Shown here piece by piece: positions 545 through 55,577 of a DNA stretch of 64,000 nucleotides. The DNA is taken from the NCBI GenBank assembly GCA_965235115.1, contig OZ249436.1, positions 28,088,001 through 28,152,000 on the forward strand. The letters run 5' to 3'. Under the pieces are notes generated by a model. That model had not been told where the DNA came from and did not search any database. It saw nothing but the letters and a program-made list of their open reading frames with translations. Each line of letters opens with the position of its first letter. Position 1 is the stretch's first letter. Position numbers and translations under genes: made by a program. The stretch is from Laetmonice hystrix. Taxonomy: Eukaryota.

Positions 545-3500
545 ACTTACCTCATAGAAGACAGTGTAGTTAACTCTACCGCTGACTGACTGGTCATAGA
601 CGACAGTGTAGCTAACTCTACCAGTGACTGACTGGTCATAGACGACAGTGTAGTTAACTCTACCGCTGACTGACTGGTCATAGACGACAGTGTAGTTAAC
701 TCTACCACTGACTGACTGGTCATAGACGACAGTGTAGTTAACTCTACCACTGACTGACTGGTCATAGACGACAGTGTAGTTAACTCTACCACTGACTGAC
801 TGGTCATAGACGACAGTGTAGTTAACTCTACCACTGACTGACTGGTCATAGACGACAGTGTAGTTAACTCTACCACTGATTGACTGGTCATAGACGACAG
901 TGTAGTTTACTCTACCACTGACTGACTGGTCAGAGACGACAGTGTAGTTAACTCTACCAGTGACTGACTGGTCATAGACGACAGTGTAGTTAACTCTACC
1001 AACGACTGACCTGGTCATAGACGAACTCTACCAACGACTGACCTGGTCATAGACGACAGTGTAGTTAACTCTACCACTACAGTGACTGACTCTGGTCATA
1101 GACGACAGTGTAGTTAACTCTACCACTGACAGACTGGTCATAGACGACAGTGTAGTTAACTCTACCGCTGACTGACTGGTCATAGACGACAGTGTAGTTA
1201 ACTCTACCACTGACTGACTGGTCATAGACGACAGTGTAGTTAACTCTACCACTGACTGACTGGTCATAGACGACAGTGTAGTGAACTCTACCACTGACTG
1301 ACTGGTCATAGACGACAGTGTAGTTAACTCTACCACTGACTGACTGGTCATAGACGACAGTGTAGTGAACTCTACCACTGACTGACTGGTCATAGACGAC
1401 AGTGTAGTTAACGCTACCAGTGACTGACTGGTCATAGACGACAGTGTAGTTTACTCTACCACTGATTGACTGGTCATAGACGACAGTGTAGTTAACTCTA
1501 CCGCTGACTGACTGGTCATAGACAACAGTGTAGTTAACTCTACCGCTGACTGACTGGTCATAGACGACAGTGTAGTTAACTCTACCGCTGACTGACTGGT
1601 CATAGACAACAGTGTAGTTAACTCTACCGCTGACTGACTGGTCATAGACGACAGTGTAGTGAACTCTACCACTGACTGACTGGTCATAGACGACAGTGTA
1701 GTTAACTCTACCACTGACTGACTGGTCATAGACAACAGTGTAGTTAACTCTACCGCTGATTGACTGGTCATAGACGACAGTGTAGTTAACTCTACCAGTG
1801 ACTGACTGGTCATAGACGACAGTGTAGTTAACGCTACCAGTGACTGACTGGTCATAGACGACAGTGTAGTTAACTTTACCAGTGACTGACTGGTCATAGA
1901 CGACAGTGTAGTTAACTCTACCAACGAATGACCTGGTCATAGACGAACTCTACCAACGACTGACCTGGTCATAGACGACAGTGTAGTTAACTCTACCACT
2001 GACTGACTCTGGTCATAGACGACAGTGTAGTGAACTCTACCACTGACTGACTCTGGTCATAGACGACAGTGTAGTTAACTCTACCGCTGACTGACTGGTC
2101 ATAGACGACAGTGTAGTGAACTCTACCACTGACTGACTGGTCATAGACGACAGTGTAGTTAACTCTACCACTGACTGACTGGTCATAGACGACAGTGTAG
2201 TTAACTCTACCAGTGACTGACTGGTCATAGACGACAGTGTAGTTAACTCTACCACTGATTGACTGGTCATAGACGACAGTGTAGTTAACTCTACCACTGA
2301 TTGACTGGTCATAGACGACAGTGTAGTTAACTCTACCAGTGACTGACTGGTCATAGACGACAGTGTAGTTAACTCTACCAGTGACTGACTGGTCATAGAC
2401 GACAGTGTAGTTAACTCTACCACTACAGTGACTGACTCTGGTCATAGACGACAGTGTAGTTAACTCTACCACTGATTGACTGGTCATAGACGACAGTGTA
2501 GTTAACTCTACCAGTGACTGACTGGTCATAGACGACAGTGTAGTTAACTCTACCAGTGACTGACTGGTCATAGACGACAGTGTAGTTAACTCTACCAACG
2601 ACTAACCTGGTCATAGACGAACTCTACCAACGACTGACCTGGTCATAGACGACAGTGTAGTTAACTCTACCACTACAGTGACTGACTCTGGTCATAGACG
2701 ACAGTGTAGTGAACTCTACCACTGACTGACTGGTCATAGACGACAGTGTAGTTAACTCTACCACTGACTGACTGGTCATAGACGACAGTGTAGTGAACTC
2801 TACCAACGAATGACCTGGTCATAGACGAACTCTACCACTGACTGACTCTGGTCATAGACGACAGTGTAGTGAACTCTACCACTGACTGACTCTGGTCATA
2901 GACGACAGTGTAGTTAACTCTACCGCTGACTGACTGGTCATAGACGACAGTGTAGTGAACTCTACCACTGACTGACTGGTCATAGACGACAGTGTAGTTA
3001 ACTCTACCACTGACTGACTGGTCATAGACGACAGTGTAGTTAACTCTACCAGTGACTGACTCTGGTCATAGACGACAGTGTAGTTAACTCTACCACTGAC
3101 TGACTGGTCATAGACGACAGTGTAGTTAACTCTACCACTGACTGACTGGTCATAGACGACAGTGTAGTTAACTCTACCACTGACTGACTGGTCATAGACG
3201 ACAGTGTAGTTAACTCTACCACTGATTGACTGGTCATAGACGACAGTGTAGTTAACTCTACCACTGATTGACTGGTCATAGACGACAGTGTAGTTAACTC
3301 TACCAGTGACTGACTGGTCATAGACGACAGTGTAGTTAACTCTACCAGTGACTGACTGGTCATAGACGACAGTGTAGTTAACTCTACCACTACAGTGACT
3401 GACTCTGGTCATAGACGACAGTGTAGTTAACTCTACCACTGATTGACTGGTCATAGACGACAGTGTAGTTAACTCTACCAGTGACTGACTGGTCATAGAC

Positions 3501-5066
3501 GACAGTGTAGTTAACTCTACCAGTGACTGACTGGTCATAGACGATAGTGTAGTTAACTCTACCAACGACTAACCTGGTCATAGACGAACTCTACCAACGA
3601 CTGACCTGGTCATAGACGACAGTGTAGTTAACTCTACCACTACAGTGACTGACTCTGGTCATAGACGACAGTGTAGTGAACTCTACCACTGACTGATTGG
3701 TCATAGACGACAGTGTAGTTAACTCTACCACTGATTGACTGGTCATAGACGACAGTGTAGTTAACTCTACCAGTGACTGACTGGTCATAGACGACAGTGT
3801 AGTTAACTCTACCAGTGACTGACTGGTCATAGACGACAGTGTAGTTAACTCTACCAACGACTGACCTGGTCATAGATGAACTCTACCAACGACTGACCTG
3901 GTCATAGACGACAGTGTAGTTAACTCTACCACTACAGTGACTGACTCTGGTCATAGACGACAGTGTAGTGAACTCTACCACTGACTGACTGGTCATAGAC
4001 GACAGTGTAGTTAACTCTACCAGTGACTGACTGGTCATAGACGACAGTGTAGTTAACTCTACCAGTGACTGACTCTGGTCATAGACGACAGTGTAGTTAA
4101 CTCTACCACTGACAGACTGGTCATAGACGACAGTGTAGTTAACTCTACCGCTGACTGACTGGTCATAGACGACAGTGTAGTTAACTCTACCACTGACTGA
4201 CTGGTCATAGACGACAGTGTAGTTAACTCTACCACTGACTGACTGGTCATAGACGACAGTGTAGTGAACTCTACCACTGACTGACTGGTCATAGACGACA
4301 GTGTAGTTAACTCTACCACTGACTGACTGGTCATAGACGACAGTGTAGTTAACTCTACCACTGACTGACTGGTCATAGACGACAGTGTAGTTAACGCTAC
4401 CAGTGACTGACTGGTCATAGACGACAGTGTAGTTTACTCTACCACTGATTGACTGGTCATAGACGACAGTGTAGTTAACTTTACCACTGACTGACTGGTC
4501 ATAGACGACAGTGTAGTTTACTCTACCACTGATTGACTGGTCATAGACGACAGTGTAGTTAACGCTACCAGTGACTGACTGGTCATAGACGACAGTGTAG
4601 TTTACTCTACCGCTAACTGACTGGTCATAGACGACAGTGTAGTTAACTCTACCAACGAATGACCTGGTCATAGACGAACTCTACCAACGACTGACCTGGT
4701 CATAGACGACAGTGTAGTTAACTCTACCACTGACTGACTCTGGTCATAGACGACAGTGTAGTGAACTCTACCACTGACTGACTCTGGTCATAGACGACAG
4801 TGTAGTTAACTCTACCACTGACTGACTGGTCATAGACGACAGTGTAGTTAACTCTACCAGTGACTGACTGGTCATAGACGACAGTGTAGTTAACTTTACC
4901 AGTGACTGACTGGTCATAGACGACAGTGTAGTTAACTCTACCACTACAGTGACTGACTCTGGTCATAGACGACAGTGTAGTGAACTCTACCACTGACTGA
5001 CCTGGTCATAGACGACAGTGTAGTTAACTCTACCAATGACTGACCTGATCATAGACGACAGTGTAG
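545..5066. repeat. 42-bp minisatellite (about 107 units) overlapping exon end and donor
   Basis: Unit gactggtcatagacgacagtgtagttaactctaccactgact; shares the last 22 nt of exon 5045-5204. Confidence 0.97.
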
Positions 5067-5204
5067 CTGACCCGGACTGTGCCCACCGCCCCATCCTCAC
5101 GGGTGATGTTGAGGCGGATGTTGCGCTCGGCGTTGCCGGGGGAGACGATAATTCTCTGTGCCGCTGGGTCCATCCCAAAACGTCCGTGGGGAAATTCGTT
5201 ATAC
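5045..5204 (-). CDS. ADGRV1: ADGRV1 exon (YNEFPHGRFG...RVSYTVVYDQ), Calx-beta
   Basis: atgcag|g acceptor, cag|gtcagt donor; phase matches the upstream exon (CG+G = Arg). Confidence 0.9.
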
Positions 5205-5493
5205 CTGCATTAATAAATATCCTCAATAACAAACAACATTTTAACACCAATATCCACCAGCAGATGAACAGAGGACCAGACAGAACGTCCAAGAAAAGAA
5301 TACCCTCTCCTTCCCGAAGTCACTGCTTTGTCTCCTCTGCGTACATTCTTTTCTGGCACACTCTTGTCAAACAAACTTCTTCTACTGACTGCTTTCGTCT
5401 ATGCTGCTCCGTATTTCAACTACATGCCAGATTGCAGGTAAATCTAGGTTGTTTAATATGAGAGGGGGTCGATTTTGTGGCCTTTAATTTACC

Positions 5494-6173
5494 GATAATG
5501 GTTGAAATGCAATAATCAAACTGCGTTGTCTCACTGACCGTATGGTGAAGGAGGATAATGGTTTAAATGTAATGATCAAACTGTGCGTTGTCTCACTGAC
5601 CGTATGGTGAAGGAGGATAATGGTTTAAATGTAATGATCAAACTGTGCGTTGTCTCACTGACCGTATGGTGAAGGAGGATAATGGTTGAAATGAAATGAT
5701 CAAACTGTGCGTTGTCTCACTGACCGTATGGTGAAGGAGGATAATGGTTTAAATGTAATGATCAAACTGCGTTGTCTCACTGACCGTATGGTGAAGGAGG
5801 ATAATGGTTTAAATGCAATGATCAAACTGTGCGTTGTCTCACTGACCGTATGGTGAAGGAGGATAATGGTTGAAATGAAATGATCAAACTGTGCGTTGCC
5901 TCACTGACCGTATGGTGAAGGAGGATAATGGTTGAAATGCAATGATCAAACTGTGCGTTGTCTCACTGACCGTATGGTGAAGGAGTATAATGGTTGAAAT
6001 GCAATGATCAAACTGTGCGTTGTCTCACTGACCGTATGGTGAAGGAGGATAATGGTTGAAATGTAATGATCAAACTGTGCGTTGTCTCACTGACCGTATG
6101 GTGAAGGAGGATAATGGTTGAAATGAAATGATCAAACTGTGCGTTGTCTCACTGACCGTATGGTGAAGGAGGA
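5494..6173. repeat. 62-bp tandem repeat (about 11 units) spanning a splice donor
   Basis: Each unit = last 17 exonic nt + donor gtcagt + intron start. Confidence 0.97.
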
Positions 6174-6383
6174 GACGTTGAATTCGCCATCGATCTCAGC
6201 TCCCCCGTCAGCCGAGACGAGGTGTAAAGAGAAAACTTCGTTCAGTTCGGGCTGAGTGTCAGCCAATATGAAGATGGTCACCTCCCCAGTCCGCTTGTCA
6301 CCCTCGATCAGAGCTGTGCCCGTCACCTGTTCCACGTCAGCCGTCACGTTGTTCGTACCCCGTCCCTGGACCTTCCATGTCAC
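6157..6383 (-). CDS. ADGRV1: ADGRV1 exon (VTWKVQG...SSFTI), Calx-beta
   Basis: ggcag| acceptor, acg|gtcagt donor; DTQPELNEVFSLHL motif. Confidence 0.92.
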
Positions 6384-6791
6384 CTGCCAGTCACAAGCAC
6401 ATAATATATTATACTATATAAACGTTTTAAAAAAGTGTTCACAATATTTATGGTCCTTATACATGCACGTCAACAACTGCATACTACTGGGTAAGTGAAC
6501 GGGGTTTTATCTTGTGGCTGTATAATAGCGACGTCCATGGGTGGAACGAGGATTTCGTTGAAAAGAAGTGGGACCAAGAAGAAATCTTGCAAGGGGGGGT
6601 CCAACATGGTGGAGAAAGCTCTGTGAGAAAAATAGGAAAATTGACCCCAAACGGGGGTCCTGACTTCACCCTCGGATCCGCCAATGACGTACCTATATTA
6701 CACTGTAGCCTACACACAATGAAATATTTTCAACCTTCGCCTTTCTATGCTAGATTATGTTATTTTGAACCAAGTTAATTTCGACACTAAC

Positions 6792-6935
6792 CGATACGTC
6801 GCCGATTGTGCCTTGCCGTCGGAATAATGGAAAGCGTACGATTCGTTTTCCTGCAATGGGTTCTTCAAAAACCCTGCCCTGCTGGGCTATGCCATCAAAT
6901 CTTATGATACCATTGGGGTCACCAAACTTCTGGAT
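6792..6935 (-). CDS. ADGRV1: ADGRV1 exon (IQKFGDPNG...GTIGDVS)
   Basis: ccacag| acceptor, tcg|gttagt donor; 48 codons, phase 0/0. Confidence 0.9.
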
Positions 6936-7075
6936 CTGTGGACAAAGAGATATCTTACATTGTGTGGTCAAGTAAAGTGAAGCTATGATGGTTGTTCTGT
7001 TACCTGCCTTGTCTTGTTCCCATTTGAACTACATTCAGGCATAAATCACCTTAAAACTTGGATCATATCGACCTG

Positions 7076-7201
7076 GGCCTGGTTTACAAACAAAGTCAAG
7101 TCAATTTTAATTGACTTGAAGTCAATTTTACTTGAATCTGATTGGTAAAAATGGATTTCAAGTTAATTAAAATTGACTTGACTTTGTTTGTGAACCGGGC
7201 C
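7076..7201. mobile_element. Hairpin MITE, PIF/Harbinger-like
   Basis: ggcctggtttacaaacaaagtcaagtcaatttt ... aaaattgacttgactttgtttgtgaaccgggcc inverted arms; CTG/CAG flanks. Confidence 0.7.
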
Positions 7202-7338
7202 CAGGTTTTAGAGAAACCTTGAAAAAATGAATTTGTAAAAACAAAACATTCATTCTCTATCCACCTTAACATTTTCAATTTCAATAATTATTTCAGTGTC
7301 ATTATGATCTGTGACCTCCTCCACGATCCTACACGTAC

Positions 7339-7617
7339 CTTGAGGGTTAAGTTACTAGCGGTCGGGTTCACCTCCCCGCTGCCAGTGTTAGCCGGGAATC
7401 CCTGAATATCGGAGATAACAATAGTGAAGTTTTTCGCAATCTCCCAGCCAGCATGCGGTTTGATGGTAAGCACGAACGACTTGGGACCTGCCTCGTTAGG
7501 TTGCCATACGAGAAAACCTTGGGTCAGTTCACGACCTCCTGTCCCCTCCGTCGATACATCGTTAGTTTCCTCCAGAACTCGGTTCGGGTCATTGGGGCCC
7601 ACGATTCGCCAATTTAC
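7339..7617 (-). CDS. ADGRV1: ADGRV1 exon (VNWRIVG...NLTLK)
   Basis: attag| acceptor, aag|gtacgt donor; 93 codons. Confidence 0.9.
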
Positions 7618-8084
7618 CTAATAAAACGGGAAATAAGCAGAGCAGCTGTTACCTTTGTTTTCGTCACAACTCTGTTCGGCTGGAGTTATCACTGTATTTA
7701 ATTATGCTGATTTTGAACGTCGGTAAATGCTGTTAGATAAATAACCAAATTGGAGCCGTATTTAGTGAAGTGGAGTTTCTGACAATGAATACACTCATGG
7801 ATGCTGGAAGTAGATGACATTGTATAGAATAAAAATCTTCATTTTGTTTAAACCTTTATTTTCCTGGCGAATTAAATGTATAAAAAACAGCAATTTCTTC
7901 AAATACAATGACGTACCCATAAGGTAATGGTAATTTTCAACACACGTCAAAATATAAATTATGTTCACCAAAGCAGTATTCATCAGTATTACAATTAACA
8001 CTGCTGTCGTTATCATTATCAATACTGACAATAAAAACAATAGAATGAGATTCGATCCACATGACGTCCAAAGTGCCACGTCAA

Positions 8085-8479
8085 TGACAGACCTCCCACC
8101 CGGTGACTGACTGACCTCCCACCCGGTGACTGACTGACCTCCCACCCGGTGACTGACTGACCTCCCACCCGGTGACTGACTGACCTCCCACCCGGTGACT
8201 GACTGACCTCCCACCCGGTGACTGACTGACCTCCCACCCGGCGACTGACTGACCTCCCACCCGGTGACTGACTGACTGACCTCCCACCCGGTGACTGACT
8301 GACCTCCCACCCGGCGACTGACCTCCCACCCGGTGACTGACTGACCTCCCACCCGGTGACTGACCTCCCACCCGGTGACTGACTGGCTGACTGACTGACT
8401 GACTGTCTGACTGACTGTCTGTCTGACTGACTGACTGACTGACTGACTGACTGTCTGACTGACTGACTGACTGACTCAC
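8085..8479. repeat. (GACT)n microsatellite grading into a 23-bp minisatellite, starting at a donor
   Basis: gacctcccacccggtgactgact about 13 times plus (gact)n abutting ctcac (the donor). Confidence 0.95.
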
Positions 8480-8655
8480 CCTCTGCCGACCGATCAGACC
8501 TCCGTCCCGGGCGATGTTGAAGACGAGTGAGCGACGTACGTCAGGGTTAGGGATGGTCACTTCGGTTTGTCCGATAAAACTGAACCGACCGTTCGGATAG
8601 TCGGACTTGGCGATCGTTACGACGGCTGTGGTACGACTACCGAGGAACGCCCCGC
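8480..8655 (-). CDS. ADGRV1: ADGRV1 exon (GAFLGSRTTAVVTIAKSDYPNG...GRQR)
   Basis: ttccag| acceptor, agg|gtgagt donor; phase 1/0. Confidence 0.92.
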
Positions 8656-11117
8656 CTGGAACAAACAACCCACCGAACGTCATGTATCCTTATACCTGTA
8701 GGGTTCCCGGACTATCAGCTTTACAAAATCGTGCACTCTTCCTGGAACTTTATGATTTCTTCCAGGAACATGTGCAGGATTCCCTGCAGTTTTTCTTACC
8801 AATCGGATATCGACGAAGATTTAAAAAAATAGCACCCTGCCCGAGAATAGGACTTGACTCTCTTAGTCAAATTCTCAGGCTTTTTCTAGGCCAAGTGATT
8901 ATAAAACTGCCGAGCTTGTACCGGCCGTCTGGGTCCCAATATAAAATACCTCGACTTTTCGCGATTTCACGGACCGGCAGAACCCCTGACCGAAAGACGG
9001 TTATAGAACACAAGAATTAGCAGTTTTGAACATTTATAGATTACCTTTAACACTCCACGAATATCCACTTTAAATACGGTACCGTATTTAAAAACAAGTA
9101 CAAAACACAAATACTATTATACTATATTCTATTTTGCGGCTGTTCCAGGGTAAAAAAACAATTATTGGAAATTGATCGAAAAAATTCTAATCTCTAATGA
9201 TTCATGAGTCTAGCCTCAAAATTAACAAAAGCAGATATCTGAAATCATTTGGACATGAAATGTGTATTATGGGACCATAACGTTTGGGCGTGAAATGTGT
9301 ATTATAGAACCATAACGTTTGGGAAAGTTATGAACAATCGATGACCACCGTGAATCGAGTGACTGCCGGGTGTTGAATGAGTCAGATATTGTAAGAGTAT
9401 GGTGCCCTTACCACCCCACCGTTACTCATGACAAGCTCATGACAAGGCGGGGTTGGGGGAGGGGGGTACGGGTGGAGGGTGGGGGTGTTTACGCCTGACC
9501 TCACCGGATGAATATCGTGTCTCATGTAGTAATCAATACCAGTCTCCACAACAACTGAGTCCAACACTGTGTACTGTGTTAACCTCATATCATCATCATC
9601 TCCGATTATCATCTTTGTCACTGTCCAGGTGTGTCACCGGACCAGCAATATCAATATTGTGGGGCCAGTTACCTGGGCTGATGTCGATCATAACGGTTAG
9701 AGAATTATTATTATTATGTCAGAATTACATGTATAATATGTACACATAGCGAGTATCGTAATACTACATTGTAGACATCGTGTATGTGGTAAGCACGGTA
9801 GATTTACCAGTGTATTATTATAATACTTATAACGGGTTATCAAATCCACAGTAGAGTCGGTGCACATCAAGTACATGTATACCATACTTAATGTTTAATA
9901 TGAGGCTTGCTTGGTTCGTCCAAATCTATATATTGATCAAACAGGTTACGTAACATCGGTCAATGGGAATTACAATCACAGGGTCAGTGGTGTTGTGAAA
10001 ATCATTTGTTAGTAAAACATTTCATTTAGCACAAGATCATTTCATTTAGTGCGAGTTTGGACGAATCCGAGAATTGTATAATACATCCCAGATCCAAGCT
10101 ATACCAGTCCACTGGGACGGTACTGGTCATCATTCCCAGGTAATCGTGGTTCAACAAATATAATTAATCATAAATAGGAACTGACATCATATAAATATAA
10201 CAGACCCCTAATATCATATACCGGCACACATATTGTTCATCGTCAACTCTACCAGCACATTGCACCTTAAGAGCACTGTAAACGAATGTAAACACTGCAA
10301 TACCTTTGACAAGCACACTACATCATGTCACATTCTCAACTGCCTACAGAACAATAAACCGGCCTTAAGATAATGTCATATACCCTACCTGGGTCCTCCG
10401 TAACGGCATGACAGTTGTGTACGCTGGCTAGCAGCACTAACATACATCCCAGGTAGTGAAGGCTGACATTTGCCATTATTGCTCTCAATAATATTCCCGT
10501 CTTCAATGGAGCATAGCTCGCTGCCACAGTCGGCTTGAATTGACCTAATTCGGCGGGCTCTCTGACAGCATTGAGCCTCACGTTCTCAGTGCCCAGGTAC
10601 AAGCGGTCCCAGGTGCTTGCCCAAACACAGTCTATCGACCCAGTGTCTGAAAACCTCACCACCATTAAACTCCCCGCCAAAAACACACGGATTGGGTTGT
10701 CACCAATGCTCTACGGTCACGGTGGGTGAACATAATGTTTTAAGGGTGCGGGCGGTTTTGGGTAACTATGGATCGTTTGGCATGGTCATGGTCCAGTGCT
10801 TACAGCATAGTGGTTAGTGCCTCAGCCAAAAACGGGTTGGGGTACATTGTATGACAGCTTCAAGAAGGGGTTTTCGGTTGTTACAGCTAACTAAAAACTA
10901 TATAAATACCCCATCCTATCTAATACCCTCGCTTACTTCTGTAATCAGCAGCCTAATTAATTAGTCAGATTACCCTATCGGTTAATGCTATTAGCCTTCT
11001 GAGTGACTAATTTGAAATGGTAATTTTGTGGTTGGATATTGGAATGTAACAATGTTAATTAGGGAGACTAATTGAGGTAAATGTTCAAGAAAATTGAAGT
11101 TAAATAGTTAAAACTAT

Positions 11118-32162: not shown

Positions 32163-32165
32163 AAG

Positions 32166-32224
<59 letters not shown>

Positions 32225-33643: not shown

Positions 33644-33644
33644 C

Positions 33645-42197: not shown

Positions 42198-42426
42198 GAG
42201 AATCCAACTTACCTTGGTGTCATACCTGGCGGAAATATAGATTCTATTGGCCACTCTCAGGAGTAGGCCAGAAACGGAACAGCCAGCATTACGGAGGAAT
42301 GCCCTGTGTTATTATTCTGACGATACTAGTTGTTCTACTGAAATTATACCTGCCCCTGACAGTGGAATATTGGACTTAGGCCTAGAAAATGCCCCCCAGG
42401 TATGACGCCAGGACAAGTGGATTCTC
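42198..42426. mobile_element. Small MITE (GAG...CTC termini)
   Basis: gagaatccaacttaccttggtgtcatacctgg / ccaggtatgacgccaggacaagtggattctc; partial copy at 35080-35265. Confidence 0.65.
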
Positions 42427-42669
42427 CTGTATAATATGCGTTACACATGCAATTCCCTTTTTCTCACTACAGATTATAGATACCGATTCCATAATTATAT
42501 CTACCAAAAATTTCATTCACTGACAAATCTATTTAATATTATCTATGAAGGTATAATAGGCCCATGCTGGTAGTGAATAGAACGTTTCTCTTTATTGTTG
42601 TAAATATTATTAACACAAGCGTTACAATACTAACGATATTTGTGGCTGCCTCATGAAAGTGGCAGTTAA

Positions 42670-44832: not shown

Positions 44833-45194
44833 AGGGGCCCGCACACGAGGAGAAACTGGCGCAGCGCAACTGACGCTCGACTAGTAGCGCACCGTCTGCG
44901 GGCGAATTTCCGTGTGCATTTGTCCACTCGTGGTCGTGTGGAAAATATCTATCGTGTTTGATTCTACCTGCCACTCGTGGCCAGTGGCACCCCGTGTACG
45001 GGCTGCAGTGCGCTATTTCCTCAGACGACGGACACAGTGTGCATGCGGTATTGGCATTTAAAAATGGCGGCGCCCAGTGAAGTAGTGAAGCAAAAGGCAC
45101 CCCGTGTACGTGGAGCAGTGAGGTGTGCAAGTAGCGCGTGTCTCTGGCGCTGCGCTGTTGGCGCGCGCGAGTTCCTCTCCGTGTGCGAGGGCCT
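44833..45194. mobile_element. MITE, Harbinger-like
   Basis: ggcccgcacacgaggag / ctctccgtgtgcgagggcc; absent from the paralogous site near 40722. Confidence 0.7.
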
Positions 45195-45852
45195 GTAGGG
45201 GCCCGATTTCGCCCGTAAAAAGGCATGTGTGGCAGCAATCGGAACGATCAAGCCATTTCCGGTTAACTTTGTTTTGGGAACTAGACTCGGACAGTGAAAG
45301 TGTAGAAATTTGACGGTCATATGCCGGGAATCCACCAGATGTGTGATGTGCTCTCTGATCTGGCCGATTGAAAATTTAGTGCAGTCGATTGACCAACTGT
45401 TTTAGGTGTTGTGTGCACACAAACAAGTTTTCACCGATTGTACATGTTGATAATGAGCAAACAAGTAACAGGTTCACATAATTTGATGTCACAATACGAT
45501 TTGAGCAGTCCGACTTTTACCATAATGGCGGTGCCCACACGATGACAACATGTCATAGCCATATCCATGGCATAGGCCTAGTGCACACGTGTGCGATAGA
45601 TTACGAATTTAATGGAGACTCCCTTGGAAGAATTTCTAAGTGCGGTACAATATGCGAGCCACAGCCTTCGTTTGCCCTTCAGCCTTCGACACAAGGACAG
45701 CATGTAACACTGGTAGGTGCAGTGTCGCTTCTTCCCGAACGCAATGTTTGTGTGTACATCACCTGCCATTTTAAAAATAGTTTTGTGACGTCAGCCATGC
45801 CAGATGGCATTCTTACTATCGGATTCTATTTCCCGAAATGGACTTGGTCGTT

Positions 45853-45940
45853 CCGATTGGTGTGGCAGAGGGGTAAGCGCAGCAAGCCCCTCTGCATTAT
45901 GGGAGATTGATCGCGGCACAGTGCCGCCCCTCTATATAAA
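45853..45940 (+). promoter_or_regulatory. Candidate promoter of the nested transporter gene
   Basis: Reverse CCAAT (gattgg, about 45855), GC box CCGCCC 45924-45929 and TATATAAA 45933-45940, about 165 bp upstream of the ATG. Confidence 0.4.
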
Positions 45941-46104
45941 TCTACAATGGGCTCTGATAGTCAAATGATGCATCATCTGGCCGTAATAGGTTAATCATCC
46001 TTAATGATTTAATTTAATTGGCGCGGGGCTGGCCTTACCGGTAGGCCTACGCTTCGAGCTCCTTTGACAAACAGTAACACCGTGAACTGGACGAAGTGCT
46101 TGCA

Positions 46105-47127
46105 ATGACAGATAAAACGGAGACCTGGCGCCCCTTGTTGGGATACCTAGCAGCTATTGGTGTCGTTATTGCTGACGGCATTGGGATCTCATGTGTTCAG
46201 ACCTTGCGTGGATTAATACCGGACTTCCAGCTTAACGTATTTAGGTACGTTACTCAACTAAGCATAAGCCTAAGTATTCTCATCGTGCAGACGCGGGGGA
46301 TTCCGTTCACAACTGACCAAACCAACTATGGTTGGATGTGCCTTTTGGCCTTTTCCAGCATTGCCTACAATGCTGGCTACTTTGGGGGATGTGCGATGAT
46401 TGCTGTCTCAGCTGCCAATGCAACCCTTAATCTGTCAGCAGTTATAGCAGTAACACTTCTGTGTAAACTATTCCTGAAGACCCGGATTGGACTCGTTCAG
46501 TGGATTGCCATATGTGTGTGCGGGACTGGTATATTCTGTATCAGCCAACCTGAGCCGTTCTTCCAGAGGGAACTTCAAAATAACAGTTTGTGCCTTCAAA
46601 ATGACTTCAACATCACGGAAACCGGAGGCAACACTTGTGAACATGACTCAACTATTCTCTTGGGATACATACTGGTTGCCATAGGCGGCTTTTCAATTGG
46701 CACATTATCTATCATTTCTGGGTGCGTACTCATCAATATAAATCCAGTCAGCCAAGTCGTCTGGGTTTCTTCCGTTGGCGCTTTAACATCATTGTGCATA
46801 GCTTTTTACTTTGAAGAGCTGGTCATTCCCACTCGGGCAGTCGATATAGCATTGATCGTGGGTCACTGTTTGAGCGGTTCATTCGCTGCCGGTATATATT
46901 TCTACGCGTGCCAAGTGATTGGCCCCATGCGTACAAATATGGTGCGTTCTTTTGAAGTCGTTATGTTACTTTTGCCGCAGTACACCGTGTTAAAAGACAT
47001 TATACCAGGACACAGGAATGTTCTAGAAGTGTTTGGAGCCGTCCTAACTACGGCTGGGGTCGCGCTCATACCGGCTGTTGATCTGATCGCCCAAAAACGG
47101 CTGACAGAACTCGGCGACCAACAGTAG
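46105..47127 (+). CDS. Intronless SLC35G-like / EamA (drug-metabolite transporter superfamily) membrane protein, 340 aa, nested antisense in an ADGRV1 intron
   Basis: Uninterrupted ORF (ATG at 46105 in gcaATGa context, TAG stop); about 10 hydrophobic segments in two halves separated by a polar loop; CVQ.L...IPDFQLNVFR resembles invertebrate SLC35G-like proteins from memory. Confidence 0.8.
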   Translation: MTDKTETWRPLLGYLAAIGVVIADGIGISCVQTLRGLIPDFQLNVFRYVTQLSISLSILIVQTRGIPFTTDQTNYGWMCLLAFSSIAYNAGYFGGCAMIAVSAANATLNLSAVIAVTLLCKLFLKTRIGLVQWIAICVCGTGIFCISQPEPFFQRELQNNSLCLQNDFNITETGGNTCEHDSTILLGYILVAIGGFSIGTLSIISGCVLININPVSQVVWVSSVGALTSLCIAFYFEELVIPTRAVDIALIVGHCLSGSFAAGIYFYACQVIGPMRTNMVRSFEVVMLLLPQYTVLKDIIPGHRNVLEVFGAVLTTAGVALIPAVDLIAQKRLTELGDQQ

Positions 47128-47555
47128 TGGTGGTCTATAGACCCTCAGTCTGCCCCATTTTAATTAACCCCTCCCACCAACTATGTTATATGACCCACCC
47201 TGTGCCCCCTTCTGATACCTAGCATACAGTTTCTCTTCCCCTTTTAATTTTCGTTTTCCCTATTTGTCTCTGTAGCCCTCTATTGTCGACCCACGGCCCT
47301 TATTGTTATACCCCATACATTCTCTACTTGTCAACTTCTCTTCACTACTTTGTCCCCCACCCCCACCCAGCCTCCTTGCTACCACTCACTCCTTTACCCA
47401 TTGACCTATACTTGCTATAATGTCGGACTACAGCCGGTGCTCGGACACCAGGCCGACAGACTCGGACACGAGGCCAACAGACACGAGGATGAAAAACACC
47501 AGGCCAAAAGACACAAAGCCGAAAGGACATCAGGGCGACGGACACGTGTCCGTAG

Positions 47556-48217
47556 CATTCGGCCCACCTCGGGACTCTCCGGGCCAGATCCTCTCGGCCC
47601 TCGCACAGTCGTCACCATGTTGGATCACGTGACACAACGTGGTCAAAACGGCGACGGCCGACACACCGACAAAGGTGAAAGACAAGCAGTGTCTGGCTTG
47701 TTTAAAAACAGATCTCCGCTTGATACCTCTGACACGTGGATTAGACGTCAGAGAAAATCTATTTAGGTCTCTATAGATACTTTTTTAGATGTTGACATTA
47801 CTATTGGCACTGTTTATCGTCAGACGGAGGTCAACGTTTGTCCCACGGACGAGCTGTCTCACTTGGGATTCCCTCGGGATTCCCTTGGGCGTATGACGTC
47901 ATTTCTTATGTTGATACAAGCTATATATAATTATTATAGTAAAGTCGTATGATTTCATAAATACTGCAAAACTGAATGTGTCGCGGCTGCTAAGAACGAT
48001 CGAGACTGCAAATCTTCGGAAATTATCCATCTTTCCTGATGAACAATCCCACGTTAGGCCGAATACCGACGGTCTATGAACTACTTTACGCCGTTGCGCA
48101 CTACGCGAGTTGTGATGTACCCAAACCCGTGGAATCACTGTCATATCTCTACGGCTTGCGACGTCCGAGTCCACAACTAGCGAAGCGACCGGAAGTTGGG
48201 CCGAGGTTTTCCGAATG
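47556..48217. mobile_element. Mutator-like MITE, direct copy downstream of the nested gene
   Basis: cattcgg...ccgaatg; 10-bp TSD gtgtccgtag. Confidence 0.88.
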
Positions 48218-48917
48218 GTGTCCGTAGGTGGATTCTGGTGTATTCTGAGAGTAAAATTGGCATCAATTTGTGGGGTAAATAGATCGGTTACACTCACACT
48301 TATGTCGGAGTATATATTGGACTAAAAATGATTTTTAATTTTGAGAAAGTTGCCGGCAGTTTGGGGGAAGTAGGCGGGCAGAACCGCCTGGTGCCGGCGC
48401 TTATTGAGAAGGCTGGGGCATGCATGTCTTCTCTTTTTGCTATTATGCTTCCTTTTCTGTCAGGAGAAATTGTGATTAATATTATTACACGCAAACAGGA
48501 TTTCTATTGAAGCACAAGATGTTAATTGTACTTTGAAACAACGTTTGAATCTTGCCTTTATTAAAAGTTTACACTTAGGCCTATGTCTTGAATTTGTATG
48601 ATAACGTTATATCAACATCAGCGTCTTAGGCCATAGACTCCCTCTATTTATGTTTCTTAACTTTATACGGATTATATAATAACCTTATTTACCGATGGTA
48701 AAAACGTTTATTACATGCCTCAATGAGTAATCTATTTCAAATTACAAATAGAATGGCAATTATTTTGATCCATTCATTTCTGTGATGCTGAAGTCATTTT
48801 GAAAGCAGAAACTGTTATTATTAATTGATGAAGTAATTCCGCCCCGTCCCTCCTCCCTTTTCCGGGTGACACCGCAATACAGCAGGTAGACAATCCAACC
48901 ACTGTCATTTTAACAGT

Positions 48918-51390
48918 TTCTGTGTGCGGGTGGGTCTAGTTCAAGGCTAAATAATATGAGTGAGGGTGGGTCTGGGTGCGGGGTGGGTCTGAGTGAGTGT
49001 GGGCCTTGGTGACGGGTGGGTCTGGGTGCCGGGTGGGTCTGGGTGACGGGTGGGTCTGGATGAGTTTGGGTCTGGGTGACGGGTAGGTCTGGGTGAGTTT
49101 AGGTCTGGATGACGGGTGGGTCTGAGTGACGGGTGGGTCTGGGTGAGTTTGGGTCTGGGTGACGGGTGGGTCTGGATGAGTTTGGGTCTGGGTGACGGGT
49201 GGGTCTGGGTGACGGGTGGGTCTGGGTGACGGGTGGGTCTGGGTGACGGGTGGGTCTGGGTGACGGGTGGGTCTGGGTGACGGGTGGGTCTGGGTGACGG
49301 GTGGGTCTGAGTGACGGGTGGGTCTGGGTGACGGGTGGGTCCGAGTGACGGGTGGGTCCGAGTGACGGGTGGGTCTGGGTGACGGGTGGGTCTGGGTGAC
49401 GGGTGGGTCTGGGTGACGGGTGGGTCTGAGTGACGGGTGGGTCTGGGTGACGGGTGGGTCCGAGTGACGGGTGGGTCCGAGTGACGGGTGGGTCCGAGTG
49501 ACGGGTGGGTCTGAGTGACGGGTGGGTCTGAGTGACGGGTGGGTCTGAGTGACGGGTGGGTCTGAGTGACGGGTGGGTCTGGGTGACGGTTGGGTCTGGG
49601 TGACGGGTGGGTCTGAGTGACGGGTGGGTCTGGGTGACGGGTGGGTCTGGGTGACGGGTGGGTCTGGGTGACGGGTGGGTCTGAGTGACGGGTGGGTCTG
49701 AGTGACGGGTGGGTCTGAGTAACGGGTGGGTCTGGGTGACGGGTGGGTTTGAGTGACGGGTGGGTCTGGGTGACGGGTGGGTCTGAGTGACGGGTGGGTC
49801 TGAGTGACGGGTGGGTCTAAGTGACGGGTGGGTCTGGGTAACGGGTGGGTCTGGATGAGTTTGGGTCTGGGTGACGGGTGGGTCTGGGTGACGGGTGGGT
49901 CTGAGTGACGGGTGGGTCTGAGTGACGGGTGGGTCTAAGTGACGGGTGGTCTGGGTAACGGGTGGGTCTGGGTGAGTTTGGGTCTGAGTGACGGGTGGGT
50001 CTGAGTGACACTTGGGTCTGGGTGACGGGTGGGTCTGAGTGACGGGTGGGTCTGAGTGACGGTTGGGTCTGGGTGACGGGTGGGTCTGGGTGACGGGTGG
50101 GTCTGAGTGACGGGTGGGTCTGGGTGACGGGTGGGTCTGAGTGACGGGTGGGTCTGAGTGACGGGTGGGTCTGGGTGACGGGTGGGTCTGGGTGAGTTTG
50201 GGTCTGAGTGACGGGTGGGTCTGAGTGACGTGTGGGTCTGAGTGACGGGTGGGTCTGAGTGACGGGTGGGTCTGAGTGACGGGTGGGTCTGGGTGACGGT
50301 TGGGTCTGGGTGAGTTTGGGTCTGGGTGACGGGTGGGTCTGGATGAGTTTGGGTCTGGGTGACGGGTGGGTCTGGGTGACGGGTGGGTCTGGGTGAGTTT
50401 GGGTCTGAGTGACGGGTGGGTCTGAGTGACAGGCGGGTCTGAGTGACGGTTGGGTCTGGGTGACGGGTGGGTCTGAGTGACGGGTGGGTCTGAGTGACGG
50501 TTGGGTCTGGGTGAGTTTTGGTCTGGGTAACGGGTGGGTCTGGATGAGTTTGGGTCTGGGTGACGGGTGGGTCTGAGTGACGGGTGGGTCTGAGTGACGG
50601 GTGGGTCTGAGTGACGGGTGGGTCTAAGTGACGGGTGGGTCTGGGTAACGGGTGGGTCTGGGTGAGTTTGGGTCTGGGTGACGGGTGGGTCTGGATGAGT
50701 TTGGGTCTGGGTGACGGGTGGGTCTGAGTGACGGGTGGGTCTGAGTGACGGGTGGGTCTGAGTGACGGGTGGGTCTAAGTGACGGGTGGGTCTGGGTAAC
50801 GGGTGGGTCTGGGTGAGTTTGGGTCTGAGTGACGGGTGGGTCTGAGTGACAGGTGGGTCTGAGTGACGGTTGGGTCTGGGTGACGGGTGGGTCTGAGTGA
50901 CGGGTGGGTCTGAGTGACGGTTGGGTCTGGGTGACGGGTGGGTCTGAGTGACGGGTGGGTCTGAGTAACGGGTGGTTCTGTGTGCGGGTGGGTCTAGTTC
51001 AAGGCTAAAGAATATGAGTGAGGGTGGGTCTGGGTGCGGGGTGGGTCTGAGTTAGTGTGGGCCTTGGTGACGGGTGGGTCTGAGTAACGGGTGGGTCTGG
51101 GTGACGGGTGGGTCTGAGTGACGGGTGGGTCTGGGTGACGGGTGGGTCTGAGTGACGGGTGGGTCTGAGTGACGGGTGGGTCTGAGTGACGGGTGGGTCT
51201 GAGTGACGGGTGGGTCTGGTTGACGGGTGGGTCTGAATGACAGGTGGGTCTGAGTGACGGGTGGGTCTGAGTGACGGGTGGGTCTGAGTGACGGGTGGGT
51301 CTGAGTGACGGGTGGGTCTGAGTGACAGGTGGGTCTGAGTGACGGGTGGGTCTGGGTGAGTTTGGGTCTGGGTGACAGGTGGATCTGAGT
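48918..51390. repeat. 17-bp G-rich minisatellite (about 140 units)
   Basis: gacgggtgggtctg(a/g)gt. Confidence 0.97.
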
Positions 51391-52305
51391 GTTTTTTCTT
51401 GCCCCCACCAAACATGTGAATTGTGTTGCCGTAAGGCTTAAAACTAACCATTGTTGTCACGGATATTTCATTAACCATACACCGGGAGGGTGCACATTCA
51501 AAGCCAAGGTCATGGTCTTTGTATATTCAATGAAAATGGCCCGCACACACCCACGTCTTACGGTCCTTGCTGTTACATGCTTTATACTTGGCAGAGTGCG
51601 GCATACCTTGGCCTGGGAAACTGACAGCACAGAGCCAGATCACTGTGAACACCGTTCGGTGAGATATCAGTTTTTGCCGGTAGACAATTGCTTGTTCAAA
51701 TCCAATTACATGTTCTGTTAGAAAAAAAAACTTTTTCCGATATAGCTACCTGCATGTATGCAAATTCATCTCAGACCAGATGCCAATGATGTTTGGTAGA
51801 ATATAGCCAAGGAATTCGGCTCTGTGCTCTGTACAGAGCCGAAGGTCGCCGTTCAGAATTTCCGAGCGTACCCGGACAAATCCTCTGTTTTCCATGAAAA
51901 GCCCTCCCTTGTCTCTATATGTTGATGAAATATTGATAAATAAACTCAAAATAACTTATCTCTCATATCTGCAAGCTGGAAAAGCACGATGCGACACAAT
52001 AAAGACAGTCACATCTCTCGAACCGAGAAATTTCAATGCTCGTTGACCGTCAGAGAGATGCATGCTGGGATATCAAAAGCAACATGGCGGCCGGTAAAAC
52101 GCCGTTAAACGGGTGATCTAGACATGAATTTGACGTTGTACTATTAGAAACACTGCTTCAGGGCCCCACACACCTACTGTCGAGATAAATGGATGCCGGT
52201 GAGTTGATCAGTGCAAGCGGTGGTGGTCTGGCCCGTGTGTGGTATGACCCGCCAGGAATTTAATTCGGCTGTCTGTAAGCCTTGCTGGCCCGGCGGCAAG
52301 GCTAA

Positions 52306-53374
52306 AGGCCCGGTCCCACTGGCCGATGGACACAAAACGTATGCATAAAGGACACAGCAGACGAGCAAAATTTCGGGGGTGGCTCCATCCGTTTTCATCC
52401 GCTCCAGAAATGGACAAGCTGCAGTGGATGTGAGTTGCGAGGATGCCCAGAGGATTCAGAGAGGATACAGCAGACATTTAACGGATGATAACGGACATAG
52501 AACGTTTGTTGCTCGTATATGTCGCGGATTTACATTGTACACGGCGGAAAGTTCATCCGTTCTAGGCCCGGTCCCACTGCACTTACGGATGCAAAGAGTA
52601 TGTAAAACGTAAAAAGATCTTGCCATCCGTTGGAAAACGCTATGCATCCGTTGTGTACCCATTGCATACGTGTTTCATACGCTCTATCCATCGAGCATCC
52701 GTCCACTGTGATTTCATCCGCGCAAAAAGTTTTGAGCTGCACAAAACTTTTAGAACGGATGAACTTTCCGCCGTGTACGATGTAAATCCGCGACATACGA
52801 GCAACAAACGTTCTATGTCCGTTATCATCCGTTAAATGTCCGCTGTATCCTCTCTGCATCCTCTGGGCATCCTCGCAACTCACATCCACTGCAGCTGAAA
52901 ACGGAAAGAGGGAGGAAAGATAAGGTACATGGAACGTCTATACATCGTTAGTAGCACGGAAATAGAAATGATGTAAGCGTATGCATATCGTATATAAAGT
53001 ATTCAAAACTGTCATCCACTTCCATCCGCTTTCATCCGCTAGGCTTCCGATGAACATCCGTTTAACATCCCCGCTACATACTACCCACGTCCGTTCTTTT
53101 CTATTCTGTTTTCGCCAATTTTCGCCAATTTTGTCCATTTCTGGAGCGGATGAAAACGGATGGAGCCCCGAAATTTTGCTCGTCCACTGTGTCCTTTATG
53201 CATACGTTTTGTGTATGCGTATGAAATTACAGTGGACGGATGCTCCATGGGTACAGCGTATGAAACACGTATACAATGGGTACACAACGGATGCATAGCG
53301 TTTTCCAATGGACGGCAAGATTTTGTTACGTTTTACATACTCTTTGCATCCGTAAGTGCAGTGGGACCGGGCCT
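52306..53374. mobile_element. Rearranged Harbinger-like MITE rich in ATCCG/CGGAT
   Basis: TIR aggcccggtcccactg / cagtgggaccgggcct; taa/tta flanks; third TIR copy at about 52564. Confidence 0.75.
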
Positions 53375-54081
53375 TTACTACGTAGGCTAGGTAGAATACT
53401 GCTTTGTAGCGTGACGGATACATGAAAACCGGTTTCGGTACATCGGGGTCATACCTGGTTTGGGTTTTGGCAGTAATGCTTGCGGGGTGCGACTAAACAG
53501 CAAAACCGGACGAATTTACCGAAACCGACCTCCAGATGGCAATGAAGCCGATGAAATGAAGTCAGTTTTGGTCAGTTTCCTTCGGCTTCCGAGTTTAGTC
53601 GTTCAAGTGCTCACAGGCAGGAATTTCAACAAGCTGGGGTAAAACACCATCTCATTTTTCACCGTCCAAGCGAAGAATGACACGTTCGCTCGTCCAGTTT
53701 CGCTAATGGAAATCGACAGAGGTCAGGTTCTCTCTGAAAAAGTGGATCTAATTGGATATCTTTAAATTCCTAATATGTTATTATAACTGTAGAGGGCCAC
53801 TACTTACCGTTCTAAACGTTCTGTGAACACGCATAGGCCTATAATAGTCAGGCCTACATTCAGTCTTTGTAACGTCTCCTCAATGTCCTTACAATATGCA
53901 TGGCAGGGACCGATGGGGCCTACGTGTGTTCCATTAATTAGAATCTGTTAAGCGCAGATTGTATATAGCTTCTTGATGCCACCACCTTACATATTTGATA
54001 AATTAATTCTCACTGATATAATATTCCCCCAAGTTGACTTCCATTGGCTTTATGTTGTGTTGAACTCTGTTCAGTGAAAAT

Positions 54082-54780
54082 CAAGGATCCCTGTATGCCC
54101 CTTTGCCTGAACTTTCCGTATCAAGGGTCCCTGCATGCCCCCTTGCCTGACCTTTCCGTATCAAGGGTTTCTGCCTGCCCCCTTGCCTGACCTTTCCGTA
54201 TCAATTAAGGGTCCCTACAATGTAGGGTCTGACTACATGCCCCCTTGCCTGACCTTTCCGTATCAAGGGTCCCTGTATGCCCCCTTGCCTGACCTTTTCG
54301 TATCAAGGGTTTCTGCCTGCCCCCTTGCCTGACCTTTCCACATCAAGGGCCCCTGCATGCCCCCTTGCCTGACCTTTCCGTATCAAGGGTCCCTGTATGC
54401 CCCCTCGCCTGACCTTTCCGTATCAAGGGTCCCTGTATGCCCCCTCGCCTGACCTTTCCGTATCAAGGGTCCCTGTATGCCCCCTTGCCTGACCTTTCCG
54501 TATCAAGGGTCCCTGTATGCCCCCTTGCCTGACCTTTCCGTATCAAGGGTCCCTGTATGCCCTCTTGCCTGACCTTTCCGTATCAAGGGTCCCTGCATGC
54601 TCCCTTGCCTGACCTTTCCGTATCAAGGGTTTCTGCCTGCCCCCTTGCCTGACCTTTTCACATCAGGGGTCCCTGTATGCCCCCTTGTCTGACCTTTCCG
54701 TATCAAGGGTTTCTGCCTGCCCCCTTGCCTGACCTTTACACATCAGGGGTCCCTGCATGCCCCCTTGCCTGGCCTTTCCG
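54082..54780. repeat. 40-bp minisatellite (about 17 units)
   Basis: ccccttgcctgacctttccgtatcaagggtccctgtatgc. Confidence 0.96.
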
Positions 54781-55117
54781 CCAGTGCCGCTGGATGCCCG
54801 TTTCAGGTATCGGTGTATCGGTGTATCCATAGCCCGGACGGAGGGCCAATTAGAAGCCCCCGCCCCTTCAGGTTGGGAGCTAAAAAACAGCCCTTTCGTT
54901 GCTTGTCATTTTTCAGTAATAGACATTCCTCGAAGACCTTTGTGGAGATTTTCCCCCGCCCCCAACCATGAGTCTTACCTCACTTTTACCCAACCAACGT
55001 CACCATAGGTTTATGGTTCTACCAATCTAATCCTACGTTCACCACCAAGTCCACACCCTAGGTATCTTACCCCAGTCTTACAATAATTATTACTATATAT
55101 CTAACCAGTAATCTTAC

Positions 55118-55262
55118 CCTGGGTTCAAAGCTGTAGTCAGCCCCGAGTGTGGCACCACTGGCCATACTCTGAGCAAAGCAGAATACGGACACCTCACCGA
55201 ACGTCCCGAGCTGTCGTAGGATTGTCAGCGTGATGTTAACAGTAGCCTCATCAACTTGTAAC
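55118..55262 (-). CDS. ADGRV1: ADGRV1 exon (LQVDEATV...GATLGADYSFEPR)
   Basis: ctgcag| acceptor, agg|gtaaga donor; joins in phase 0 to the exon ending at 33643 across a 21.5-kb intron. Confidence 0.9.
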
Positions 55263-55444
55263 CTGCAGCAATAATTATCTCAAGTTGACAATTAAATATA
55301 TGACACAACAACTATATATTCTGATCATTAATCAAAAAAAAGTCCGAACTTGATAGAGAATAGTGTGCATTAACATCACTCTATATTGGTTTGGAGATGG
55401 CATTGTCTATGACTGAATTGTCATATAATATATGTATATGGGTT

Positions 55445-55569
55445 GTCCTGCCAACAAGGTCCTGCCAACAAGGTCCTGACAACAAGGTCCTGCCAACAAT
55501 GTCCTGACAACAAGGTCCTGCCAACAATGTCCTGCCAACAATGTCCTGCCAACAATGTCCTGCCAACAA
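55445..55569. repeat. 13-bp tandem repeat starting 9 nt after a donor
   Basis: gtcctgccaacaa(t/g)-type unit, about 9 copies. Confidence 0.93.
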
Positions 55570-55577
55570 GAACTTAC

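Follow-up and report, generated by a model that had tools for sequence, protein, structure and literature searches.

Tandem arrays that span donor splice sites occur about 2.4-fold more often than expected in the genes sampled here; the excess is real and confined to donors, and the window (the whole 64,000-nt stretch of DNA that was analysed) is an extreme case of it. We judge these arrays, with a probability of roughly 0.6, to be mirage-type minisatellites that arose by ordinary DNA-level duplication and expansion and were filtered by splicing.

Placement of arrays relative to splice sites

The window test set comprised 18 arrays with a unit length of at least 10 and a TRF score of at least 100. 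Under the null, arrays are placed uniformly within their intron, with each array collapsed to one unit and with exons acting as barriers. By this measure, eight of the 18 arrays span a donor or lie no more than 10 nt from one (1.45 expected, p = 5e-6), and five span a donor in the strict sense (1.19 expected, p = 0.002). Outside the window, among 352 introns, donors are spanned by 16 of 69 arrays where 6.8 are expected (p = 5e-4). This excess holds at four score cut-offs (p = 6e-4 to 3e-3), and the 21 arrays excluded from the outside test show the same tendency, with five at donors and two at acceptors.

The original prediction held that array edges are enriched at exon-intron junctions, and named placement with exons as barriers as the test that might refute it. 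The donor half of this claim survives the within-intron null, also in independent genes. Acceptors, in contrast, are at the null both in the window (2/18 arrays, 1.45 expected, p = 0.44, not significant) and outside it (6/69 arrays spanning an acceptor in the 352 introns, 6.8 expected), which argues against a mutational mechanism aimed at junctions in general. Even at donors, the excess is limited to units that straddle the site (15 against 6.4 and 16 against 6.8 expected), and arrays located 1-25 nt from a donor outside the window are not enriched (2 against 3.6 expected).

Arrays were also proposed to recur gene-wide, which is not the case: eight of 32 donors carry an array in the window but only 3/71 in the rest of the gene, and 17/352 in all introns outside the window (8/32 versus 17/352, p = 4e-4). 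The window rate is 3-5 times the outside rate, and ascertainment is the only explanation offered here for this high density. A spanning array is present at approximately 4-5% of sampled donors (16/352), whereas in the window 5-8 of 32 donors have one. GC, CpG and donor strength (3.12 versus 3.47 bits, p = 0.5) are no different where an array is present, and we rejected these properties as explanations. Originally tiny introns were likewise set aside as the cause of the donor excess, as this possibility is covered by the within-intron null.

Arrays within the ADGRV1 ortholog

A spliced gene model places an ADGRV1/VLGR1 ortholog on the minus strand, with 32 of its coding exons inside the window. 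The model reproduces the exon count given earlier, the donors at 5044, 6156, 8479, 17701, 18747, 21286, 26258 and 55577 and the acceptors at 28767 and 33644, and TRF recovered the arrays reported beside splice sites (Table 1). The gene extends past both ends of the window, with 105 introns modelled and 6189 aa encoded without a stop, and in the gene model this frame stays intact when first donors are used. A homologue search using one EAR exon gave no match, and none of the 18 long EAR-domain matches scanned, most of which carry bacterial-type domains, offered a second animal gene family for testing. Inspection by eye of 14 arrays in a 78-kb intron and the gene flanks revealed no clear case of adjacent nested exons.

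Table 1. The ADGRV1/VLGR1 ortholog and the junction arrays of the window.
Feature	Position	Strand	Remarks
ADGRV1/VLGR1 ortholog, 32 coding exons	5045..56553	-	Calx-beta and EAR repeats
42-bp array, about 107 copies	545..5066	-	spans donor 5044; 22 exonic nt
62-bp x 11 array	5494..6173	-	spans donor 6156; 17 exonic nt
(GTCA)n microsatellite, then 23-bp x 13 array	8085..8479	-	starts inside donor 8479; without exon sequence
152-bp two-copy duplication	17396..17702	-	begins at donor 17701; 1 exonic nt
51-bp x 12.5 array	18128..18762	-	spans donor 18747; 15 exonic nt
36-bp x 23 array	20465..21292	-	spans donor 21286; 6 exonic nt
71-bp x 5 array	25955..26316	-	spans donor 26258; 53 exonic nt
32-bp x 54 and 15-bp x 4 arrays	28771..30578	-	stop 4 nt short of acceptor junction 28767; without exon sequence
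31/65-bp compound array	33645..34142	-	stops 1 nt short of acceptor junction 33644; without exon sequence
14-bp x 9 array	55445..55570	-	starts 7-9 nt after donor 55577; donor not repeated

Most units were said to consist of exon-end and intron-start sequence, and this is true for five of the ten junction arrays. Those at 5044, 6156, 18747, 21286 and 26258 truly contain exon sequence plus the donor (6-53 exonic nt), whereas the duplication at 17701 includes a single exonic nucleotide and the arrays at 8479, 55577, 28767 and 33644 include none. The boundary arrays have units of minisatellite size (36-152 bp by TRF).

The proposal that splice signals are multiplied holds in a similarly partial way. 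The donor is kept in 11/11 copies at 6156, and the GT in 12/12 copies at 18747, 20/23 at 21286 and 5/5 at 26258. Overall, GT is retained by 252 of 291 detected decoys, a tally in which the 5044 array is undercounted. In that largest array, however, the strong site CAG/GTCAGT (the slash marks the junction) persists in only 8/101 exon-end copies and has been lost from the other 93, with the weaker CCA/GTCAGT present in 62 more. The arrays at 28767 and 33644 do not repeat the splice site, and the internal copies at 33644 lack an AG.

The first unit of the 5044 array comprises 22 exonic and 21 intronic nucleotides, and splicing at the donor of this first copy yields an ungapped alignment to orthologs. 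A consensus-like donor near 546-551, at the end of the diverged last copy, was considered as the functional site and rejected given that the resulting protein would be one residue shorter than the ungapped ortholog alignment; this far-end donor is more plausibly just a diverged last copy. At 6156, splicing at the second copy is predicted to run into a stop. The array at 18747, by contrast, is in frame and stop-free throughout, with 17 aa per copy.

The arrays do not constitute one dispersed repeat family, as was originally proposed, but are locally born: in genome searches with three arrays, including the locus-specific one at 21286, each matched its own locus alone (3/3). The companion claim that all units are unrelated fails, since the arrays at 12953-15024 and 28825-30578 have a 10-mer in common, present 34 and 25 times, respectively. 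As reported previously, arrays run into the intron and leave the exon intact, and no exonic arrays were found. This one-sidedness is automatic, because any tandem duplication across a junction combined with selection on the exon will produce it.

Among 26 arrays, the exonic share of the unit is uniformly distributed between 0 and 1 (KS p = 0.44), and therefore the ends of the duplicated segments are not fixed at splice sites. Unit length is a multiple of three in 9/26 arrays, which is the level expected by chance.

Origin of the donor-spanning arrays

Under the reading that we favour, a local segment of 20-150 bp is duplicated head-to-tail and then gains or loses whole units. Where such a segment includes a donor, the exon end and its splice site will, by simple logic, stay intact in the first copy, and all extra copies will be intronic. 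If the spliceosome uses the most upstream donor, as in human F7, downstream copies would be nearly free and could keep their GT; the extra sites would have no function. Acceptor copies, lying upstream of the true site, would be met first and would probably be costlier. The donor surplus may thus reflect a surplus on both sides of exons that is cancelled at acceptors by selection. Such a surplus could come from junction-anchored arrays being immune to junction-crossing deletions or, alternatively, from homologue pairing and conversion that, in a heterozygous genome, begin in exons because these are conserved. The suggestion that extra U1 sites are tolerated fits this reading. Against this reading, the acceptor-spanning arrays inspected mostly retain intact decoy AGs, so that an acceptor cost is not directly visible in them.

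An unlikely alternative is that transcription or splicing (by polymerase pausing, U1 binding, R-loops, or a nucleosome or methylation edge) promotes breakage or slippage near the 5' splice site and so starts or enlarges arrays specifically at donors. Such mutagenesis would make the assumed acceptor cost unnecessary, and it suits an excess that is seen only at donors and only for straddling units. There is also a hint of excess at low copy number: of the 16 arrays with units of at least 25 nt and fewer than four copies, four are at donors (1.6 expected, p = 0.06). However, the breakpoints do not coincide with the site, neither donor strength nor GC, CpG or G-skew shows any link, and there is no gradient behind donors, with 23 of 47 non-spanning arrays lying nearer the donor, which also counts against the broad pausing or R-loop zone first envisaged. 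Slightly less probable again is a general form, in which a germline process linked to the 5' splice site, through U1, paused polymerase or a chromatin edge, would start or enlarge donor duplications genome-wide. The arrays would then record a mutational trace of co-transcriptional splicing, and the same process would underlie both the lancelet mirages and the donor VNTRs of humans.

It is improbable that no true bias exists, such that arrays fall uniformly in short introns bounded by exons as barriers and the window was merely picked as an extreme. The introns are indeed short (median collapsed length 325 nt for all, 267 nt for those with donor arrays), and because of this about one in five arrays is expected to span some junction by chance. 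In keeping with such an account, acceptors match the null, the window exceeds the outside rate as described above, and the first ABCC sample was not significant when either side was counted (12/41, 8.95 expected, p = 0.14); the last outside batch contributed one donor and one acceptor array among only 10. Regardless, the donor excess outside the window persists under the within-intron null at all four cut-offs, and the excluded arrays lean likewise.

We give equally little credence to the idea that extra U1 sites are selected, be it because they strengthen exon definition, guard against premature cleavage or supply alternative donors in frame. The many decoys retaining GT, the higher copy numbers of donor arrays and the open frame across all copies at 18747 are what such selection might produce, but concerted evolution alone suffices to keep GT. 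Moreover, the largest array has lost most of its strong sites, units are multiples of three only at chance level, arrays are not found at weak donors, copy number is labile, and one close paralog has no such array reported.

RNA-templated rolling-circle copying of circular RNAs or lariats, reinserted locally, is largely refuted; the duplication at 17701 does start at its donor and several exon shares are tiny, yet the evenly spread proportions of exon and intron, with breakpoints unpinned, argue against it, and no inspected unit equals an entire exon or the stretch between a donor and a branch point, nor do units in general end at splice sites or branch points. An assembly artefact is scarcely credible: although the run data cover only 1/10 window junction arrays and are contigs of one sample, itself possibly the assembly source, contigs from three runs of that sample break at both ends of the 26258 array (at 26038 and 26276 in 3/3 runs) with no joint skipping it, individual copies differ by variants of their own and show higher-order patterns, and arrays are common to paralogous loci.

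Array growth and comparison with known systems

Arrays occur at about 0.3-0.65 per kb of collapsed intron, and locus-specific minisatellites are shown to turn over rapidly in this genome. Copy number differs between paralogs: one junction array common to paralogs with 95.5-97.6% CDS identity has 2.8, 2.9, 3.8 and 14.8 copies, and a common acceptor array has 7.2 and 8.9. The median copy number is 11.1 for donor arrays (n = 24), 10.6 for acceptor arrays (n = 8) and 4.4 for others (n = 40; donor versus other, p = 0.007), and the larger size of junction arrays fits the prediction from anchoring. Speaking against anchoring, copy identity gives no detectable sign of a greater age of donor arrays (0.952 versus 0.934, p = 0.11), nor does the identity of first units (p = 0.27) or last units (p = 0.09), and the arrays 1-25 nt from donors, which should be partly protected too, show no enrichment.

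In 23/47 arrays the end lies between -3 and +10 nt from a complete unit (14.1 expected), a weak tendency. Among arrays with fewer than three copies, 2/35 are at donors (1.8 expected), and none of the 22 exact two-copy duplications is at a donor, where only 0.29 would be expected. An apparent signal of expansion rather than birth did not persist after exclusion of small units.

The phenomenon itself has been described previously, in lancelet mirages and human donor VNTRs, and the present species is a probable annelid. Lancelet reports (PMC3087553, PMC3902484) describe mirage minisatellites in Adh3, troponin C, globins BflGb6 and BflGb9, and PGBD5 as tandem exon-intron boundary copies at donors and acceptors, with units of 10-160 bp, variable copy number, diverged terminal copies and splice signals kept in many but not all copies; splicing is left undisturbed, and the origin is called unclear (PMC3087553). 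The arrays described here similarly copy the boundary in tandem, at donors and at acceptors, with units of comparable size, diverged terminal copies and the signal kept in many. They differ in belonging to another phylum, in that their frequency was compared with a null expectation for 352 introns, and in being donor-biased.

The human donor-spanning VNTRs reported are located in F7 intron 7 (37 bp), CBS intron 13, 6-16, LMNB2 (lamin B2) and PDGF, and in F7 the most upstream donor is used while identical pseudo-donors follow (PMC1557585). Here, too, the first unit spans the boundary and pseudo-donors lie downstream, but the human examples are isolated cases, unlike the appreciable share of donors affected in our sample. 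Internal tandem repeats at exon-intron boundaries have been presented as raw material for gene-structure change (PMC2812944), and in the tandem-duplication model of intron gain a new intron arises through duplication of a proto-splice site (as given in PMC3087553). In contrast to that model, no new intron or exon is seen at the window arrays, and first-donor splicing keeps the protein at ortholog length. An account of earthworm metallothionein describes intronic minisatellites, and none spanning a junction in the portion available (PMC12783039). We found no genome-scale enrichment test, donor/acceptor comparison or annelid case in the literature, in which subscription journals were thinly covered.

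With arrays at approximately one in 20 sampled donors, these loci form a large natural panel of junction minisatellites. The panel could serve to examine in an invertebrate the 'first donor wins' rule of human F7, for which the in-frame array at 18747 is a clean case, and to separate mutation from selection as the source of the donor-over-acceptor asymmetry. Arrays also mislead gene annotation, and in this study an acceptor copy was mistaken for an exon by the aligner.

Gene model and anatomy of the arrays

The assembled genome (G000) comprises 627 Mb in 35 contigs, and the window lies at G000:C1:28088001-28152000. A query with an EAR-repeat exon of the window gene recovered the 6248-aa ADGRV1 protein of Branchiostoma, and tblastn gave collinear minus-strand matches to it. 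With 200 kb of flanking DNA added to the window, we obtained a spliced ADGRV1 model of 105 introns encoding 6189 aa without a stop; 32 of its exons lie inside the window, and the model contains each of the ten splice sites listed in the original prediction. The best-scoring ortholog of 19 is that of Owenia (1874 bits, 44.7% identity), with which the gene groups at a support of 0.99 in a FastTree analysis of 16 taxa where Owenia is the sole annelid. For an exon of the ABC-transporter (ABCC) genes, the closest matches include Dimorphilus (76%) and Owenia (74%). The source animal is a spiralian, most probably of the annelids, rather than a lancelet. The median ADGRV1 intron is 458 nt, yet one of 78 kb and one of 21 kb are present, both repeat-rich, and inspection by eye recognised no nested gene in either.

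Coordinates of introns and arrays (window-extended, numbering with flanks added)
Feature	Position	Strand	Remark
78-kb ADGRV1 intron	window-extended 158987 to 81043		spliced model
21-kb ADGRV1 intron	window 55117-33644		spliced model
51-bp donor array (18747)	window 18128-18762	-	in frame, stop-free through every copy
Arrays ending 1-4 nt short of an acceptor junction	window 28771; window 33645; ADGRV1 168326 (window-extended); G000:C4 near 23,006,990

Window arrays were detected with TRF and are named here by their splice sites. Most had been thought to consist of exon-end and intron-start sequence; a unit of exon end plus donor is found in five of the ten junction arrays (5044, 6156, 18747, 21286 and 26258) and not in the rest. 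Donor 17701 is the start point of a two-copy duplication, a GTCA microsatellite begins within donor 8479, and the arrays at 55577, 28767 and 33644 merely adjoin a splice site. That arrays extend only into introns requires no mechanism, since in an arrangement of exon-end + [e i][e i]... the exon end is provided by the initial copy and the others are intronic by definition. No array lies wholly within an exon of ADGRV1.

Extra donors inside the array (decoys) are intact in 11/11, 12/12, 20/23 and 5/5 copies of four window donor arrays; in the 4.5-kb array at 5044, the strong donor form is left in just 8 of 101 copies. Of six window donor arrays examined, five would reach a stop if the second-copy donor were used. 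Given the open frame of the 18747 array, use of its decoys would insert 17 aa per step and evade nonsense-mediated decay. The final, diverged copy of the 42-bp array at 5044 (window 545-575, minus strand) closes with a near-consensus donor, which is 4.5 kb downstream of the modelled donor and would keep the reading frame with the loss of one codon.

Authenticity and known relatives

For the 71-bp array at 26258, contigs from all three runs of one sample stop at 26038 and resume at 26276, and none of the three contains a joint that skips the array; this check covers one array of ten, in a sample that is possibly the assembled one. Recent ABCC paralogs have junction arrays in common, with unequal copy numbers: a 42-bp donor array has 2.8, 2.9, 3.8 and 14.8 copies in genes whose coding sequences are 95.5-97.6% identical, two out of three sister genes carry a 100-106-bp donor array, and a 75-bp array at an acceptor has 7.2 and 8.9 copies. 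An assembly artefact is unlikely to lie behind the arrays. All three arrays queried against the genome match their own locus only, in a search that ignores very common words. Across window 21300-27600, the run contigs carry many substitutions and indels relative to the assembly, which suggests that the sampled individual is highly heterozygous. Lancelet individuals are likewise highly heterozygous.

Two lancelet reports describe 'mirages', in which intron-exon boundaries are duplicated in the manner of minisatellites; they affect Adh3, troponin C, globins and PGBD5, have units of 10-160 bp, occur at both kinds of boundary, leave splicing undisturbed and are of unclear origin (PMC3087553, PMC3902484). 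Donor-spanning VNTRs are described for human F7, CBS, 6-16, lamin B2 and PDGF (PMC1557585). The six window arrays that contain exon sequence agree with mirages in every testable characteristic, whereas the four that merely adjoin a splice site do not. The predicted feature is real and belongs to a known kind; its scope and mechanism were overstated.

Enrichment at donors

Under our null, each array (unit >=10, TRF score >=100) was collapsed to one unit and placed at random in its own intron, with exon overlap allowed. Within the window, 8 of 18 arrays lie within 10 nt of a donor (1.45 expected, p=5e-6) and five strictly span one (1.19 expected, p=0.002); acceptors show no excess (2/18 versus 1.45, p=0.44). 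Because the window had been chosen for its array pattern, enrichment was also tested elsewhere. In the 71 introns of the rest of ADGRV1, a count that omits the 78-kb and a 9-kb intron, 3 of 12 arrays are at donors (1.09 expected, p=0.08) and two at acceptors. ABC-transporter genes from ten contigs were annotated by homology, and an intron was retained only if its junction peptide agreed with the reference; a first sample gave 9 of 41 arrays spanning donors (4.5 expected, p=0.024) and three spanning acceptors (4.5 expected).

The final out-of-window set, representing these two gene families rather than the whole genome, holds 352 introns and 69 arrays. Sixteen arrays span donors, where the within-intron null predicts 6.8 (p=5e-4) and the pooled one 4.9 (p=1e-5). 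Acceptors are spanned by six, without excess (6.8 expected, p=0.7). Seven paralogs (C19_a, b, c, d, f, C11_22 and C20_b) were excluded because their common arrays would count twice, as were one unannotatable locus and introns failing the junction match; two introns defined manually contribute one donor and one acceptor array. By itself, the last batch (29 introns, 10 arrays) carries no information either way. Among 21 arrays in match-failing introns, five span donors and two acceptors, as judged by eye; one further such array proved acceptor-spanning after locus extension. Arrays lie within 10 nt of 8/32 donors in the window versus 17/352 outside (p=4e-4), and strictly span 5/32 versus 16/352 (p=0.02).

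The proposed enrichment at splice sites thus holds for donors, inside and outside the window, but not for acceptors. What is new here is this measured donor-only excess of ~2.4-fold, which persists outside the window, together with a natural test set.

Origin of the arrays and other repeats

In the most economical model, arrays would arise by duplication and expansion at the DNA level, and a surplus at exon edges would be cancelled at acceptors by selection. Downstream donor copies would be ignored by splicing, as has been demonstrated in human F7 (PMC1557585); upstream acceptor copies would probably be met first. Array ends fall near a whole unit in 23 of 47 cases (14.1 expected), as unit-wise duplication would produce. 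Junction arrays have 11.1 (donor) and 10.6 (acceptor) copies versus 4.4 in mid-intron arrays, and unit length is divisible by three in 9 of 26 donor arrays. It is also possible that a donor-specific process coupled to transcription generates the excess; non-spanning arrays show no lean towards the donor (23/47 are nearer to it), and array-bearing donors do not stand out in strength, GC or CpG. The RNA-templated copying originally entertained fares worse, since the fraction of the unit that is exonic is distributed uniformly over 0-1 in 26 donor arrays (KS p=0.44, with the period overestimated for two), so that breakpoints disregard the splice site, which speaks against circular-RNA or lariat templates.

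Four arrays end 1-4 nt short of an acceptor junction, leaving out its AG, and purging of AG-bearing copies may be responsible. A (GTCA)n-type repeat of ~150 units (L037, G000:C6 about 9,167,778-9,168,754) begins exactly at a donor and occupies nearly the entire 982-nt intron, comparable to window 8479. A near-palindromic 10-mer is common to the otherwise different arrays at 12953-15024 (34x), 28825-30578 (25x) and 31315-31394 (2x), the last being a detached copy of the 28825 unit. At window 63185-63564, repeats of 149 bp x 2 and 19 bp recur ~831 bp away (L008, window-extended 64016-64395), suggesting a larger local duplication where the window ends. Very high-copy short elements are present in introns at window 22718-22891, which has long inverted ends and is MITE-like, and 26681-26729, with summed contig depth from thousands to >100,000. 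ABCC genes at G000:C1 36,281,000-36,298,000 and G000:C21 22,143,000-22,169,000 contain extra ABC-membrane matches or out-of-order exons, which suggest duplicated, possibly mutually exclusive, exons.
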